A DNA stretch of 64,000 bases from Trichoplax sp. H2 (Eukaryota): the NCBI GenBank assembly GCA_003344405.1, contig NOWV01000013.1:372001-436000 (forward strand). The letters run 5' to 3'. Shown one piece after another: positions 32,916 to 61,583 of the stretch; the first letter of the stretch is position 1; each line of letters begins with the position of its first letter. Position numbers and translations under genes: made by a program. Below the pieces are notes generated by a model. The model had not been told where the DNA came from. It saw only the letters and a program-made list of their open reading frames with translations, and searched no databases.

Positions 32916-35546
32916 TTAATTATTTTGGGGCCACCAAAGTGGTTTGCTGGCTGTAAGAGTTACTTCAGTGTTGTTTGTTGTTTTAACAGATAACAATCCA
33001 GACAAGCTGCAAAACAATTATTCAATCAACGTCTGGCTTATTAGATTGTAAATCATTAGTACGAACTATGACGATTATAATAATAATAATACTTATAATC
33101 TACTGCAAGAATTGTATCTTTACAAAACTTAAAAACACTATGTAGTAACGACCCATGGTTGATAGAATTTGTGTACGGTGTAGATTAGCATTTACTGACC
33201 TATCAGCAATTCTTAGTAATGCAACCCCATACTTTCCCGAAAGAGCTCGTAGCTTGCCACAATTCTTATTCTTATCATTTAATACAGTTGAGCCAAGGAA
33301 AGCAGCATTATCGTCGCTAAAACATTGAAGTGTGCATAGAATTATTCTTGCGCAAAATTATAAAGTTCTTCATCATAAAGTAAGCATAGCATTAATAACA
33401 GAATGGGGTACGAATAGGATTAATTGATTAATTAATGATTCATTAACACTGTGTAGAATATCCTTCATTCGGTCTAGCGTATGTTCATAGTACTTACATT
33501 GGATTTAAGAAAATGACCGGCATGAGGCGTTTTCTTATAACGCCAGTGTGATAAGTTCTAGCAGTCAGTTCTTGTCCCAGATAGCATCCTTTATCAAATT
33601 TTACTGTAATTGGTAATTGACATATTTGTTAAAAGAATTGGATAATACTTTACTGATGCATGTACTATTACAGAACATGGCATACACGTACCTCCGTCAA
33701 GATAATCTAGATTGTATTCTAATGGTAATGATTCCCCTGTAATTACTTCTGATACTCCTTCACAAATTCCTAATTTCATGCGATCATCCACATATTCTTG
33801 ATAATTTACATTGGTTAAATTTTGAGCGTATTCAGATACTGTGTGAGGAAATATAGTAAAATCTTTATAGTTAACGAGTATAAGTAAAATTGAATAAAAC
33901 ATATTGCCCTAAATTTAACATCACGTAAATGATAGGTTAACGCATTTCGTCGATACAACGTACAATTCTTGTGACGAGGTATTATTATCCTCTCTCCTAG
34001 TTTTCTATGTTGACGCAAAATAAATTACAGACACATATTAATAGACTATAAATATAACAAATATACGTTAATATGAAATCATCGTATCATCATGCACTAT
34101 TTTTTGTAACTTACTGCAGACGAGGATCTTTTGTTCTTAGAATTGGCTCATTTTTAAATGCTAGCGATTCTCTATCATTATATTTAGCCCACCATACTGC
34201 TAACTCCTGATCTACATTGACGATGTCAACCTAGATGAATGTAATATTAGCCTGTTAGCATTCCTATCTTATGCTAGCAATCATATTGGATGAAACATTC
34301 GTTTAATAATAATACATACGTATGCACTCATCATGATTTATTGCATTTAATAATTTGGCCTCGATTTATTTCATATACTCGCATACAGGTATTAGAAAAT
34401 TATGCCAATACCTACCTTCGATCTTAATTTGTAAAATTTGCAGTGATTCTCGATTGCTGTATTTACGCGAACGTCACATTCTAAAAGGTAATATTCTTCA
34501 TCGTCATTTCTATTTTTATATAATAGGATATCGTATAAGATTCGACCCTAAAAATATAATGAATATGAAGAAATATGTAACATTGCCCATAGTTATTATA
34601 ATTTCCCGAAATTACTATTTATAAGTACAAGAACATAGCGAAGTATAATTATCATAGTACTGTAATTAATAATAATATCTATTTTATATAAACGTAACAA
34701 TAAAGATAATACTACAGCTAACCAGGTATCGAACAGGTCTAGGACATTATACCCTCATACTGGTATCATCGACTTGATAGAACAGTATAACAAATTGAAT
34801 AACTTGGATCATTCGGTGAATTTATTCCGATGTTTACACTTTGCGGGTATATTAATATCGCTTACTGTTAAGGTAATACATCCAAGTTCGATACGGAGTA
34901 GCCGCTAATGACAGACTCCTTATGTCGAAAAAGCATAAAATTCATCCAGATATCGAAGAACATACTCATGCATATAAGATTTCTGGGAAAGATGTACGAG
35001 TTATTCATCATAAATACTTATCGTCGTATAACTTATGTGAAAAAAAGCTACGACTAACTGATCTAATTACAGTATAATTACTAAACCGAGAGGCGTAGAC
35101 TCTCATAGTACCAGCACATTCATGCGAATTTACAGTACAGTATAAAAACCGTGAGAGCACGCCTATTACATCACGTCCACTCGTACAGTAACCTTAATAG
35201 GTAATAATTATTTGTGGAATCGATACAACTATGATCCTCCAGTTTAGTTAGAATCTCTAGAAAGTTTCATTCTTTAAGAATTTGATAGTTAGGCAAATCA
35301 TCTTTCTTTAGAAATTACCTTCGGATTCAACAACATGGCATAAGATGCCGGTTCTGTGGTATTGATGTCATTTGTAATCAAACCTTGTAGGAAAGTGGCA
35401 GCATCCGGACCGGATATCCTCAATAAAGATCGTTCGAGGAGAGGTGCACATTCAATACATGCCTGTAATGTGCTCTTATTTGTATATAATCGGTAAAGAT
35501 TTTTATTTATTATATTCTGTCTGAAAATTCTTGGCAAAATTTGCAT
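32916..35546 (-). CDS. IBA57: IBA57 / CAF17 / YgfZ-like mitochondrial Fe-S assembly factor, about 8 exons
   Basis: [45 protein letters not shown]...[12 protein letters not shown]; signature [22 protein letters not shown]; ends ...KPLWWPQNN*. Confidence 0.93.
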
Positions 35547-44443: not shown

Positions 44444-45173
44444 GGCAAAGACAGCGCTGGTGCATCCAATTCAACACCAGGTAGAATAGAGTCTGCGCAA
44501 TAGACTCCTTGGTGTCGGTTGTTTTGCATTGGTCACTCCAAGAGACCCTTTAGTTCGGTACCGTACCGGCAACGACAGCGCTGGTACATCCAATTCAACA
44601 CCAGGTAGAATAGAGTCTGCGCAATAGACTCCTTGGTGTCGGTTGTTTTGCATTGGTCACTCCAAGACCCTTTAGTTCGGTACCGTACCGGCAACGACAG
44701 CGCTGGTGCATCCAATTCAACACCAGGTAGAATAGAGTCTGCGCAATAGACTGCTTGGTGTCGGTTGTTTTGCATTGGTCACTCCAAGACCCTTTAGTTC
44801 GGTACCGTACCGGCAAAGACAGCGCTGGTACATCCAATTCAACACCAGGTAGAATAGAGTCTGCGCAATAGACTGTTTGGTGTCGGTTGTTTTGCATTGC
44901 TCACTCCAAGACCCTTTAGTTCGGTACCGTACCGGCAACGACAGCGCTGGTACATCCAATTCAACACCAGGTAGAATAGAGTCTGCGCAATAGACTGCTT
45001 GGTGTCGGTTGTTTTGCATTGGTCACTCCAAGACCCTTTAGTTCGGTACCGTACCGGCAACGACAGCGCTGGTACATCCAATTCAACACCAGGTAGAATA
45101 GAGTCTGCGCAATAGACTGCTTGGTGTCGGTTGTTTTGCATTGGTCACTCCGAGACCCTTTAGTTCGGTACCG
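44444..45173. repeat. Tandem array of six ~122-bp units (minisatellite) immediately upstream of STRAP
   Basis: The motif gacagcgctgg starts at 44450, 44574, 44696, 44818, 44940 and 45062 (periods 124, 122, 122, 122, 122). Copies differ by only a few bases. Confidence 0.97.
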
Positions 45174-45667
45174 GGTCTGGCCTATTGCTCATCTTGCAGT
45201 AACCAAGCGATAGTACAGCGTTCCGTACAGTAGAGTACAGCATAGTGATTTGGTAGTCAAGCTTGGATACGCTAAGTGTCAGGCTTGACAACCTGCACTA
45301 TCCAAGGGTGTCAAACTGGTCTAGAACTCGATATGAATGATACTGTATGGATTTTCTATTGCCTACTAGGTATGGTATGGCACAGTGGTGCGACACGTCA
45401 GGCAGTCAAGTTGTTACACCACCATATTGTGCAAAACCAACCTATACTGTACAGTGCACAGTAATAACAGTATACAGTATACAGTAGTGTATGTGTGTAT
45501 GACAAGAAGTAGAGGTGGTGATGCGGTAAGGTGGCAAATGTACTGCCTGAGTGCCTTCCAAGCCTTACTGGTCATGGCATAGGGGGTGCCACTCCGGTTG
45601 ATACCTGGCTCTAAAGGAATTTTATAATAGTTTATATAACTAAAGTTCCCCGCTAACATCATGTGAT

Positions 45668-45749
45668 GTAGTCGTGGCCGAGCGGTTAAGGCGATAGACT
45701 AGAAATCTATTGGGGTCTCCCCGCGCAGGTTCGAATCCTGCCGACTACG
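45668..45749 (+). tRNA. tRNA-Ser (anticodon AGA), intact, long variable arm
   Basis: GTAGTCG...CGACTAC acceptor stem, A-box TGGCCGAGCGG, anticodon loop CT-AGA-AA, variable arm GGGG-TCT-CCCC, B-box GGTTCGAATCC, followed by a T7 Pol III terminator. Confidence 0.97.
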
Positions 45750-45850
45750 TGTTTTTTTATTATTCTAACCGGTGTCGAAGTATAGTATAGTACCCATACC
45801 AGTCTAAAAGTCCTAGTCTCAACGCAGTAATAAGATTTTTTTTTTTTTTG

Positions 45851-45903
45851 GACTAGAAATCTATTGGGGTCTCCCCACGCGGGTTCGAATCCTGCCGACT
45901 ACG
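45851..45903 (+). pseudogene. 3'-half copy of tRNA-Ser(AGA) (no A-box or 5' acceptor strand)
   Basis: gactagaaatctattggggtctccccacgcgggttcgaatcctgccgactacg, with 2 substitutions; part of a 154-157-bp tandem unit. Confidence 0.9.
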
Positions 45904-46007
45904 TGCTTTTTTTTATTCTAACCAGTACTGTCTAAGCACAGTATAGTACCCATACCAGTCTGAAAGTCCTAGTCTCAACGCAGTAATAAGATTTCTTTTT
46001 CTTTTTT

Positions 46008-46061
46008 GACTAGAAATCTATTGGGGTCTCCCCGCGCAGGTTCGAATCCTGCGCGGGGAGA
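46008..46061 (+). pseudogene. Second 3'-half copy of tRNA-Ser with a rearranged palindromic end
   Basis: The acceptor strand is replaced by gcggggaga, giving a perfect 14-bp hairpin at 46027-46061. Confidence 0.88.
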
Positions 46062-46311
46062 TGCTTTTTTTTATTCTAACCAGTACTATCTAGGTATAGT
46101 ATAGTACCCATACCAGTCTGAAAATCCTAGTCTCAACGCAGTAATAAGATTTCTTTTTCTTTTTTAATTTTTGATAGCCCGGCTCGGTACGGTACGGTAC
46201 GGTACAATACTGCACTTCACAGTCGAATACTCCTTGGATAGACGCTTCTATTGTCCGTTCCATTATCCAGAGTACTGTGCGATACAAGAGTTGGAACCAG
46301 TCTTTCTGCTG

Positions 46312-46340
46312 TATTGGCGGCCATCTTGGTGTTACACGTG
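46312..46340. promoter_or_regulatory. Candidate SNRPE promoter motifs: inverted CCAAT, YY1-like site and E-box
   Basis: attgg, ggcggccatcttgg (reverse complement CCAAGATGGCCGCC) and cacgtg are clustered about 85-110 bp upstream of the ATG. Confidence 0.45.
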
Positions 46341-46423
46341 CTGCTAAGTAAGTGCAACCTTGGTAATCAAGTGAGAAAGAAGCGCCATTTATTCCTGACT
46401 GCAATATCCAATAAGAAATAAAC

Positions 46424-47988
46424 ATGGCTTATCATGGAAGGGTTAAGAAAGTAATGATCCAACCGATCGTATCCTTTTACACTGTTTCTCGTTGATAGCA
46501 ATGCTGCATTGGATACTTTGTAGTCAACGTTACCTTTTGATCTGTTGGAGAAGAAACGCTGCGCTCGCGCAATCTCCTGTACAAAGGCATCAATCAGTTT
46601 GAACATGTTAACTAGCCAAGCTAAGGTTTTAATAAATTTCTTCTTTCGATAGTGAGTGGATAATATGTATTGAATCGTGCATGGTAGCATGACGTAGAAT
46701 ACACACTGTACAATCGATAAAATGATGGAACGTACAATGGTACAAGCTAAGCTGATTTTGACTACTGTACTGCGTGATAGTTTACCACAGGCTGTTGTAA
46801 TAGCAACGTACTCCAATAGCCACCATGATCGATGTTAAGAGAGTATTGTCCATCCCCACTGTCTCATTTCTCTTTAGTCCAATCGTCGCTTAAAAGACCA
46901 GTTTCAAGTACTTGTACTATGCAAGCTTTTGGTTATCATCCTTCTTTCAGTAAGCAACGCTTCAATGACCTTACTTTTTGCTTGCTTGCTTGCTTTGGAC
47001 AAGAATTGCAGCTCACACGATGCTATATAGATACAGTAATTGTCTTAGGAGAACCATTCTTCATTCCCTAAATTGACTTGAAGATAAACTAGGATAAATG
47101 ATCAACTGGTAGTAAGAGATACGGTACAAAATAGAATTGTTCGATCCACGAGGCAAGTATCCTTTAATGAATACATAGAGAGGAGAGCATCATCGACTGT
47201 ATTTTATTGACGTACTGCATAAATCAATCTTGCATACCTACCTGTACATCGATCAAGCGTTCATTTGAATTACCATTGCCACATAAACAGTTACACTACA
47301 GTCTTCCAAGAATTGCCTAAAATGGCACTCTACTAATTATAGCAACTTTATAAATACACGTGTAATTTTTTCAAAATTAAATGTCATGATCATATCATTC
47401 CTTAACTCCATTCTAACTTGATTAAAAAAGAATGTGATCTTTCGGTTCCTCCAAAATGTAAGTGGAAAATATGTAATTGAGCTACAATATGAACTTGCAA
47501 TAGAAAAGAATGGTTAACGGAATGCTTGCTAATTTAAAAAATCATGTTGCCTATCTCTATATGAGATACAAACAGAAACGGTTAAGTGCATATTTGCTGT
47601 GGAGAGTCCAAACTTATTAACGGCAAATTCAATTATCTTGTGATTTATCTCAGAAAACTAGGGTTCAAATTTGGCTTTATGAACAAACTAATACGAGAAT
47701 AGAAGGATACATATTGGTTAGTTGAAACAATTAGCCTATTTTACCTCACTTTTGACCAAGAATACTAGTTTAAAAAATATTTTATTGTTAGGGATTTGAT
47801 GAGTACATGAATTTAGTATTGGACGATGCCGCTGAAGTTAGCATAAAAAATAATCAAAGAAGACCTATAGGTAAATACTAAGAGATGACTTATCAGCTTT
47901 TCTTTACTTTAATAATTTTCTTATATTGCTTTCAGGTCGTATTCTATTAAAAGGAGATAATATTTCTCTCATTACTGGCGCCCAATAA
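46424..47988 (+). CDS. SNRPE: Small nuclear ribonucleoprotein E (SmE), 5 exons
   Basis: Exons 46424-46468, 47431-47457, 47654-47716, 47792-47870 and 47936-47988 give [61 protein letters not shown]...G-RILLKGDNISLITGAQ*. Confidence 0.96.
46469..47430 (+). other. U12-type (minor spliceosome) GT-AG intron 1 of SNRPE
   Basis: 5' splice site GTATCCTTT, branch site TTCCTTAAC at 47398-47406, and no polypyrimidine tract before the AG at 47429-47430. Confidence 0.93.
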
Positions 47989-49484
47989 TATTCATGATTG
48001 TATACAACCAATTCCATGTTGTTTATAGACCATTATATAACTTAAACTACGTCAATTAAATACAATGTTAATAGCTTGATAAATTAGCCTCCTGCACACC
48101 CTGCGGCTTGAATGTAGGGCTACATGTATTTGTAGATTATAAAAATGTCCAAATGCAATAATCAAGTCCTGCCGGCACTTTAAGAAAGGATAGGGATCGT
48201 ATATGGCATTAACTGTTGAGTATCGTCGTCCCTAATCTATTTCGTTGAGTAATAAATTGTTATTATAACCCCGACCCATCCTTTTAATTGTTTAGTGTGG
48301 CAATTTTACTTGTACTGCATTTGCAATCAAATTGGTGTACGTTAATATTAACTAGATAGCACTGTCTTCCCATTTTTTCTCTTTTATATTGTATTAGCTG
48401 ACTGCTTTTTTGTAATTAGTTGTCAACTCTATTCATAAGAATAAAATATCAAAGATTGACAATGATGAAAAAGTTGATATAAAATGCTAATCGTACGAAT
48501 TTTTAACTTAAGGATAAGTACTGTACGTTATCATACAGTATGCACTTAAAATTACATACTGTATGTATTCACGATATTGAAACCGTCATATAATAACAAC
48601 TCATCGTTGTTTTAATGATATTATATAGCGAAAACGGTTGCCTGCTGATTAAGATTTTACAATGAAATTAACAAATTGATTGAATTCATCGCAATCACAA
48701 GACTACAAAATCGACAGTGCAATACTGCATACCCGTGTTTAGTGTAATCTACAGTATAGCTATGATGACACTTTTACACTAGGATTTCTACTAACACAAT
48801 GTAATGATGAAATACTTTAAGACTAAAATGGCGGAGAACTTAAATATAAATACCAGTTCATGCTTAAATACAGTAAATGACAGATACAAATACCCAGTAA
48901 GATGACAGCTAGCCACAGTGAGATTTCTCCTATATATGTATGAAATCCTTAAAATTAAATGACTTTCGATAGCACTGTTTACTATACGTTTACATTCACA
49001 TTTTAAGAAAAATTACTGAGTTCTCAAAATTGAAATCATTTTATTTTGACATAAATCGAATTATAAAAATGCGATTTACAGCTACAGTGCGTACTTTAAA
49101 AGTAATACAACCATCCAGTTGAGAGTACATTCTGATCATAACTAGTTATCGGGTACATGCAATTAATTAAATTATTATATTAAAAGATGCTAATGTTTGC
49201 GGACCAATTTTCATCATATCAACCACTGATTGTAGATTTCAAAATTTTTAACATAACTAAACAACGCAACAGTTACAGTACTGAGTAAATTTATCCATAA
49301 TAAAATAAAGAGCGACTCTAACCAGATTATGATTAAACGCTGTAAGAAAGCTTCAAATTCGCGATTTAACTACTTGCATGATACTATACAAAAATCAAAT
49401 AGTTGCGATATTCTATCAAAATATCGATAGCAAAAGCTTTGAGCGCCCTAGAAAAAGTAATGCAGTGGAATTTCTCTCGTTGCC

Positions 49485-61068: not shown

Positions 61069-61583
61069 AGCAGTTGGACGACTCCAACAGTATATAAATG
61101 CGCTAGAATTTGTCCATATAACAAATTTGGATGCAATGTGTCATCATCGAAATCATTAAAGCTACCTGAAGTTGCTATTAATCCGTTTGCTTGTTTACAG
61201 CGTTTACAGGTATGGATGACAAATAGAAAAAGGATATACATGTGTCATTGACGAATATGAAGAGTTTATTGCAATGTGCTCTACTAAACGATGCTAACTT
61301 ACTTACTGTACACGTACTGTATCGATGATTTAACTTCTACCCACTACCAGTGCTACATTAAACTAACGGTACAAGAACGCAAAGTACTGTAGAACGAACG
61401 AGGGATCGATTAGTTGATCAAAATTCGCCTCTCTTCCGTTAGGGTTTTCTCCTTTCTATCCTCTGTACAAGTGGCTGCACGACGTTATCGTAAGTAGACA
61501 CAAGTTGCACAACAAACTGCTGCTAAGTTATATCAACATTGTCATATCCGTCATATACTGGCGATCCGTATGGTTTGCAAAAC

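Follow-up and report, generated by a model that had tools for sequence, protein, structure and literature searches.

The Sm core gene SNRPB, which encodes SmB/B′, is autoregulated through a conserved cassette poison exon of the major type, and feedback by unproductive splicing has reportedly been found for this gene. Among genes of the minor spliceosome, the closest described systems are the USSE elements of U11-48K (SNRNP48) and U11/U12-65K (RNPC3). As outlined in PMC8329584 and PMC3584512, these consist of a tandem pair of U12 donor motifs a few nucleotides apart that bind U11 without serving as donors themselves; what they do is activate a U2-type acceptor upstream, and their conservation extends from plants to animals. 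At least in the account that PMC8329584 gives of them, the feedback loops known for minor-spliceosome genes employ U12 donor motifs in the role of enhancers and not of donors. A different arrangement is that of the nested U12/U2 introns of SRSF10 and prospero, where the minor and the major spliceosome use competing sites around a minor intron and the outcome settles whether a productive mRNA or an unproductive or alternative one is made (PMC8329584, in its section on these genes). For human SNRPE itself, stronger retention of the minor intron than of the major introns on either side is cited (in the relevant parts of PMC6717393 and PMC8034651). A 2012 review describes alternative splicing within U12-type introns as almost entirely absent (PMC3584512, in its treatment of the topic), and in the literature searched, subscription papers aside, we found no internal U12 donor or poison exon described in SNRPE.

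The locus examined here is the SmE (SNRPE) gene of Trichoplax sp. H2, located in a 64-kb stretch of DNA that was analysed as a whole and is called the window below. Intron 1 of this gene begins with a perfect U12-type donor, and an identical copy of it lies 688 nt inside the intron. Like the USSE of U11-48K and U11/U12-65K, the internal copy is a non-coding U12 donor motif in a gene for a spliceosome component, and in both cases recognition of such a motif leads to an unproductive mRNA (for the USSE, as described in PMC8329584 and PMC3584512). Unlike the USSE, however, the SmE copy at 47157 is single, the only other copy 688 nt upstream being the real donor; it is used as a donor, with no joint into 47084 or another internal acceptor among the RNA contigs; and it is found in 0 of 32 more distant orthologous loci, as opposed to the deep conservation of the USSE. 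The original prediction had drawn an analogy to USSE elements, which breaks down on these defining features (single copy, use as a donor, absence from all 32 orthologs). A USSE identity for the internal site was rejected, as the tandem, non-donor, upstream-acceptor and conservation features all fail.

The likeness to SNRPB is that an Sm core gene yields a premature-stop transcript by alternative splicing; the difference is that in SmE an alternative minor-type donor extends exon 1, and no cassette joint is present in the RNA contigs. SRSF10 and prospero share with SmE the competition around a minor intron, but there it pits the minor spliceosome against its major counterpart, whereas in SmE it involves two identical U12-type donors. 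What the SmE case has in common with unproductive-splicing control in spliceosome genes is the outcome alone, and the closest description of it is that of two equal U12-type donors competing for one branch site. What this adds is a perfect duplicate minor donor, used as a donor, in a core Sm gene needed by both spliceosomes. The explanation we favour, and consider probable while leaving real room for doubt, is that a lineage-specific competing minor donor sends part of the SmE transcripts to an early-stopping, dead-end isoform, in addition to heavy retention of the minor intron. The term lineage-specific is used here for a site that is absent from 26 non-redundant, more distant orthologs.

The SmE gene and its first intron

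The gene for the Sm core protein SmE (SNRPE) occupies 46424–47988 on the plus strand, with five exons and a normal mRNA of 88 codons (Table 1). It was identified from its junction-confirmed exons, from exon 1 and exon 2 peptides common to 32 orthologous loci and from the known sequence of SmE. An earlier call of SmE with a U12-type intron 1 proved right. Both the exon 1 end at 46468 and the exon 2 start at 47431 are confirmed by RNA. The 5′ UTR lies upstream of 46424, with RNA contig cover from at least 46300 (runs X7 and X10), and the 3′ UTR lies beyond 47988, where contigs extend to at least 48100.

Table 1. Coordinates of the SmE gene, its two donors and related features within the window.
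Feature	Positions	Strand	Details and basis
Exon 1, coding	46424–46468	+	15 codons, ATG at 46424; joint 46468^47431 in 3 of 3 RNA runs
Authentic U12-type 5′ splice site GTATCCTTT, intron 1	46469–46477	+	sequence and RNA joint
Intron 1, U12-type GT-AG, 962 nt	46469–47430	+	RNA joint skips 962 nt, GT..AG; orthologous U12-type introns at same position
First in-frame stop TGA after 46468	46493–46495	+	met by alternative donor or by retention
Degenerate U12 branch-like TTCCCTAAA with AG 47082–47083, candidate internal acceptor	47064–47083	+	AG 12 nt from middle A; no joint to 47084
Proposed 73-nt cassette	47084–47156	+	reads IN* after exon 1; in RNA only as end of extended exon 1
Internal second GTATCCTTT, alternative U12-type donor	47157–47165	+	joint 47156^47431, one contig, X10 only
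274-nt intron removed with internal donor	47157–47430	+	RNA joint, X10
U12 branch-site consensus TCCTTAAC	47399–47406	+	exact match; 25 nt from 3′ splice site
Exon 2, NVIFRFLQN	47431–47457	+	9 codons; sequence and RNA joints
Exon 3	47654–47716	+	21 codons; joints 47457^47654 and 47715^47791 (cut +1)
Exon 4	47792–47870	+	RNA joints (cut +1 and cut +2)
Exon 5, coding	47936–47988	+	stop TAA 47986–47988; RNA joints

Judged by its sequence, intron 1 appears to be a U12-type GT-AG intron, with GTATCCTTT at its start, an exact TCCTTAAC, though one farther from the acceptor than in the orthologs, and an A-rich stretch ahead of the AG. The donor, immediately after the exon, matches RTATCCTT, as GTATCCTTT at 46469 with the same again at 47157, and the stretch that precedes the acceptor AG (47429–47430) is A-rich and not pyrimidine-rich. 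The distance from TCCTTAAC to the acceptor is 25 nt, compared with 15–18 nt in the 11 orthologs that have an exact TCCTTRAY near the acceptor; the optimum for U12 branch sites is given as 11–13 nt from the 3′ splice site in the part of PMC3584512 that deals with it. A weaker TTCTAAC at 47411–47417, 13 nt from the AG, is a second branch-point candidate besides TCCTTAAC at 25 nt. A segment of 19 nt in the 5′ UTR (46364–46382) is 84% complementary to 47406–47424, between the branch site and the acceptor; this complementarity could loop intron 1, or it may be chance.

Orthologous introns came from a scan of contigs from metagenomes, in which a degenerate pattern covering the last part of exon 1 was combined with RTATCCTT; it returned 50 loci. 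SmE orthologs (MAY...KVQKVMVQPI and then GTATCCTT) account for 32 of these, and the remaining 18 were dropped, their upstream frame not being SmE. The 32 loci fall into 26 non-redundant groups with 24,095 nt of intron 1, and 19 of the 32 include exon 2. All 32 keep a U12-type donor at the same codon position, with exon 1 ending in ...KVMVQPI and then GTATCCTT, and the intron is therefore an old minor intron; the search pattern itself required RTATCCTT, so this count shows the presence and not the frequency of the U12-type donor. Most of the 19 orthologs with exon 2 have TCCTTRAY-like branch sites, and their introns range from 113 to 2586 nt, with 3 of the 19 under 140 nt. It is important to note that the loci compared are more distant orthologs (KVMVQPI), as exon 1 of this organism reads ...KKVMIQPI.

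Use of the internal donor in RNA

Public runs found for the locus number 22, of which three (X6, X7 and X10) are on record as RNA; these are random-primed metatranscriptomes from one study. They were compared with run X1, the one that carries the locus best, over 46300–48100 as assembled contigs rather than raw reads, in which depths are rough and rare forms may drop out. In run X1 the whole of 46300–48100 is present in one contig with no joints, the behaviour of genomic DNA, which it likely is. Each of the three RNA runs has the four canonical joints (46468^47431, 47457^47654 and two downstream), all with GT..AG ends. Run X10 has an extra contig that joins 47156 to 47431, skipping 274 nt with GT..AG ends, and this shows that the normal acceptor is, at least sometimes, spliced from the internal site, which then serves as an alternative U12-type donor. 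The original prediction had held in reserve that 47157 could be a plain alternative donor adding stops, and it is this fallback that the X10 joint, together with the TGA at 46493–46495, bears out.

The joint 47156^47431 is carried by one 60-letter contig of depth 6.4, in X10, where the canonical joint 46468^47431 has a depth of 13.8 and the unspliced contig 47127–47457 a depth of 9.04. Both X10 junction contigs are 60 letters long (30 + 27 + 3), the unspliced contig extends for 3 letters beyond exon 2, and the downstream contig begins with 27 letters ahead of exon 3; to judge from these lengths, all three X10 paths would flow into the same exon 2–exon 3 spliced contig. By contig depths in this one run, the internal donor accounts for roughly a third of the use of the exon 2 acceptor in splicing. 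Neither the joint nor a branch at 47156 is present in the contigs of X6 or X7, which may miss rare forms. The evidence for the alternative joint is thus one short contig, found in one of three RNA runs that all belong to a single study.

Given a single 60-letter contig in one run, the internal copy could be an unused chance motif and the X10 joint a chimeric contig, a product of reverse-transcriptase template switching or a DNA variant; in an unrestricted search, moreover, 15 of 100 shuffles of the window held at least two copies. Against this, the two ends of the joint coincide exactly with the GT of a perfect U12 donor and with the authentic exon 2 acceptor, and a depth of 6.4 corresponds to several reads. 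No letters fit both sides of the joint, and there is thus no microhomology to point to template switching. A single contig of X1, likely a genomic run, also crosses the region with no deletion in it. We consider an artefact of this kind the least probable of the alternatives, and take the internal site as a donor in what follows.

The depth of the X10 contig upstream of the internal donor (46439–47156) is 41, while the two paths that leave it sum to about 15 (9.0 + 6.4). This could be due to uneven coverage, to the stability of an intron fragment or to a third path not seen in the contigs. A small RNA in 46469–47430 was considered as a source of the depth of 41, and an Rfam search (E up to 1) found nothing inside the intron.

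The proposed 73-nt cassette

The main claim of the original prediction was a cassette of 73 nt between two U12-type introns, and as a description of the letters it is accurate throughout: TTCCCTAAA lies at 47064–47072, the AG at 47082–47083 and the 73 nt at 47084–47156, reading ATA AAC TAG in the frame of exon 1. In such a poison exon, TTCCCTAAA and the AG ending at 47083 would serve as acceptor and 47157 as donor. The branch-like site is 12 nt from its AG, within the 11–13 nt optimum given in that part of PMC3584512, an in-frame TAG is present, and the downstream half of the arrangement, the donor at 47157 spliced onto 47431, is what was observed in X10. In addition, the internal branch-like region matches the flanks of the real branch site, with TCATTCCCTAA at 47061 and TCATTCCTTAA at 47395 identical in 10 of 11 letters, a match that is within the range of other short repeats there.

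The two joints that would bound the cassette fared differently when the contigs were checked: 47156^47431 is present, in X10 only (one of three runs), and 46468^47084 is present in none of the three, with the reservation that rare forms may be lost from contigs. The X10 contig 46439–47156 is furthermore unbranched across 47084, though joints of depth 6.4 and 13.8 were kept in the same assembly. As a branch site, TCCCTAAA differs from TCCTTAAC at two positions, and its T-to-C change is seen in 0 of the 19 ortholog branch regions. The cassette as claimed therefore finds no counterpart in the RNA contigs, and we regard it as very improbable; an alternative donor that extends exon 1 remains our preferred reading of the X10 joint.

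Predicted fate of the alternative product

The product of the internal donor keeps 688 nt of intron (46469–47156) on exon 1 and meets a stop 8 codons past exon 1. This TGA lies about 660 nt before the next junction (47156), and under the rule as stated in PMC13187750 a premature stop is subject to nonsense-mediated decay (NMD) when an exon-exon junction follows it at a distance of more than about 50 nt. With a stop this far ahead of the next junction, the alternative isoform is predicted to be unproductive and should be a substrate of NMD. It is also possible to ask whether a shortened or altered protein could be made from the far side of the junction, but the frame entering exon 2 across 47156^47431 is open only from 47088 and contains no ATG, and therefore no N-terminally altered SmE is expected. 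Lastly, splicing from 47157 would remove the only branch site, so a later rescue splice from 46469 would no longer be available and the route would be a dead end.

Taken as a mechanism, our favoured explanation would have the donor at 47157 compete with the identical donor at 46469 for the single branch site TCCTTAAC (47399) and the AG at 47429–47430. Splicing from 46469 would give the normal 88-codon SmE mRNA, while splicing from 47157 would remove only the last 274 nt and give the unproductive isoform with its early stop. The internal donor probably arose by chance and would be tolerated or mildly used, lowering the productive output of SmE. This explanation is built on the two sites, the RNA junction, the stop and the heavy representation of intron 1 in RNA, and from these we infer that splicing of SmE intron 1 depends on the minor spliceosome, that NMD acts on the alternative product and how the site originated.

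Probable retention of intron 1

All three RNA runs have contigs over the full length of intron 1, at depths of 33 (X6), 13.8 (X7) and 41 then 9.0 (X10), which are comparable to the depths of the spliced form (21.2, 17 and 13.8, respectively). Introns 3 and 4, which are spanned by contig joints, have no cover in the three RNA runs, the bin depths there being exon overhang alone. This pattern fits retained minor-intron RNA better than DNA carry-over, and some DNA carry-over may be present in the RNA libraries although introns 3 and 4 are empty. The behaviour is similar to that of human SNRPE, as it concerns the same gene and an orthologous U12-type intron, with intron 1 covered in three of three runs here and introns 3 and 4 not. 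Retention as in human SNRPE needs no second donor, however, and Trichoplax SmE adds to it a second, dead-end splice route. The 25-nt spacing of the branch site is one possible contributor to retention.

Origin of the internal donor

A motif search of the window confirmed the positions claimed for the two perfect copies, 46469 and 47157: GTATCCTTT occurs at 46469–46477 and 47157–47165, both on the plus strand, and neither strand of the 64 kb holds a further copy. Shuffles of the window lead to an expectation of 0.76 copies against the 2 found, with at least two copies anywhere in 15 of 100 shuffles. From base composition, the numbers expected in sense inside the 962-nt intron are 0.0065 for the GTATCCTTT 9-mer, 0.020 for GTATCCTT and 0.058 for RTATCCTT. 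An internal GTATCCTTT by chance is unlikely for one intron and not negligible across a scan of many minor introns, and the expectation of 0.0065 agrees with the earlier remark that a 9-nt match by chance would be unlikely yet possible. As a repeat, the 9-nt identity is not unusual, the surrounding 1.3 kb having two further exact direct repeats of 9–10 nt. Nothing notable emerged for local RNA structure around the two donors and the proposed cassette (z-scores of −0.63, −1.29 and +0.56). Other RTATCCTT motifs in the window are located at 33458 and 43133 on the plus strand and at 61237, 30049 and 1152 on the minus strand, some of which might mark minor introns of neighbouring genes.

The orthologous introns bear on the age of the site. 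An internal RTATCCT is found in 0 of the 32 loci where 3.8 would be expected (Poisson P of zero about 0.02, 26 groups), the full RTATCCTT is seen 0 times against 1.2 expected in the 26 non-redundant groups, and the shorter RTATCC is seen 8 times against 12 expected. An internal minor donor thus does not appear to be general in SmE intron 1 and may even be avoided. The original prediction had named conservation of the internal motif in relatives as a check; its absence from all 32 orthologous loci, which are more distant, speaks against an old conserved element, and the internal site reads as something other than an old conserved switch.

Another possible origin is insertion, in which case the two 9-mers would be the target-site duplication of a 679-nt element (46478–47156) that entered a once 274-nt intron at its original donor. 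The repeat measures 9 bp exactly, with a discrete segment between its copies, and complete ortholog introns do vary in length (113–2586 nt, 3 of 19 under 140 nt). However, the segment ends without terminal inverted repeats and without an A or T tail, and the rest of the 64 kb has nothing similar to it (best E 0.12). Run X1, which is likely DNA, has the whole segment within a single contig, which sets it apart from young multi-copy repeats, and neither Rfam within the intron nor a Pfam scan of its longest ORF gave a match (for Pfam, nothing above cut-off). An insertion is unsupported and we think it very unlikely, if marginally less so than the cassette; it concerns the origin only, and would be compatible with the competing donors that we favour.

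Antisense to exon 1 and the first part of intron 1 is a frame of 155 codons without a stop (46367–46834, minus strand), which is long for DNA of 34% G+C. As a gene it was rejected and treated as chance, no Pfam family reaching the cut-off (best E 0.078, 12.6 bits against 25).

Possible feedback on SmE expression

Unproductive-splicing feedback is established for the U11-48K and U11/U12-65K genes, as recounted in PMC8329584 and PMC3584512, and the duplicated donor of SmE could likewise be a homeostatic switch under selection that senses the abundance of the minor spliceosome or of the Sm core. With U11/U12 scarce, one of the two donors would be occupied and about half of the splicing would be productive; with U11 abundant, both would be occupied and the donor nearer the branch site (47157) would win, giving the dead-end isoform and lowering SmE in a negative feedback. 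The occupancy rule for paired donors on which this is modelled comes from work on the major spliceosome. The alternative joint makes up about a third of acceptor use in one run and is not seen in its two sister runs, which could reflect condition dependence, but the difference between runs may equally be an assembly effect. A match of 9 of 9 letters where 0.0065 is expected would suit a site under selection, as would its being an outlier, the orthologous introns being without even 7-mer donor-like motifs (0 against 3.8 expected). On the other hand, such a site is carried by 0 of the 32 orthologous loci, all more distant; both donors are U12-type, leaving no obvious sensor; and nothing links the level of SmE protein to donor choice. 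We therefore consider a selected switch unlikely, and with it the autoregulation of SmE that the original prediction had suggested, and continue to prefer a competing donor of chance origin.

A narrower form of the idea, which we hold to be slightly less likely again, is that two identical U12-type donors on one branch site would act as an occupancy sensor for the minor spliceosome and throttle SmE irreversibly. If true, this would be feedback on a core Sm gene wholly within the minor pathway, unlike the USSE or major/minor competition. If donor choice responds to snRNP levels, SmE would present a new and very simple feedback design, as well as a natural setting in which to study the choice that the U11/U12 di-snRNP makes between equal donors. 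If it does not respond, a chance-born consensus minor donor would suffice to divert about a third of the splicing in one sample, which would fit the lack of RTATCCT motifs in orthologous SmE introns (0 against 3.8 expected).

Upstream neighbourhood

Upstream of SmE lies a gene for tRNA-Ser (anticodon AGA, 45667–45750), which scores 62.6 bits against the Rfam tRNA model; Rfam (E up to 1) found this upstream tRNA and otherwise only weak noise. After the tRNA gene comes a tandem array of 158-bp units (3.0 copies, 91% matches), just upstream of the SmE promoter region; the two lie within 45667–46165. Each unit repeats the 3′ half of the tRNA-Ser together with a T-run and flank, and the array may be a tRNA-derived repeat or a budding SINE-like unit. 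Further upstream, at 44444–45173, there is a 122-bp tandem repeat (6.0 copies, 97% identity). Its three overlapping minus-strand frames of 101 codons have the look of artefacts created by the repetition.
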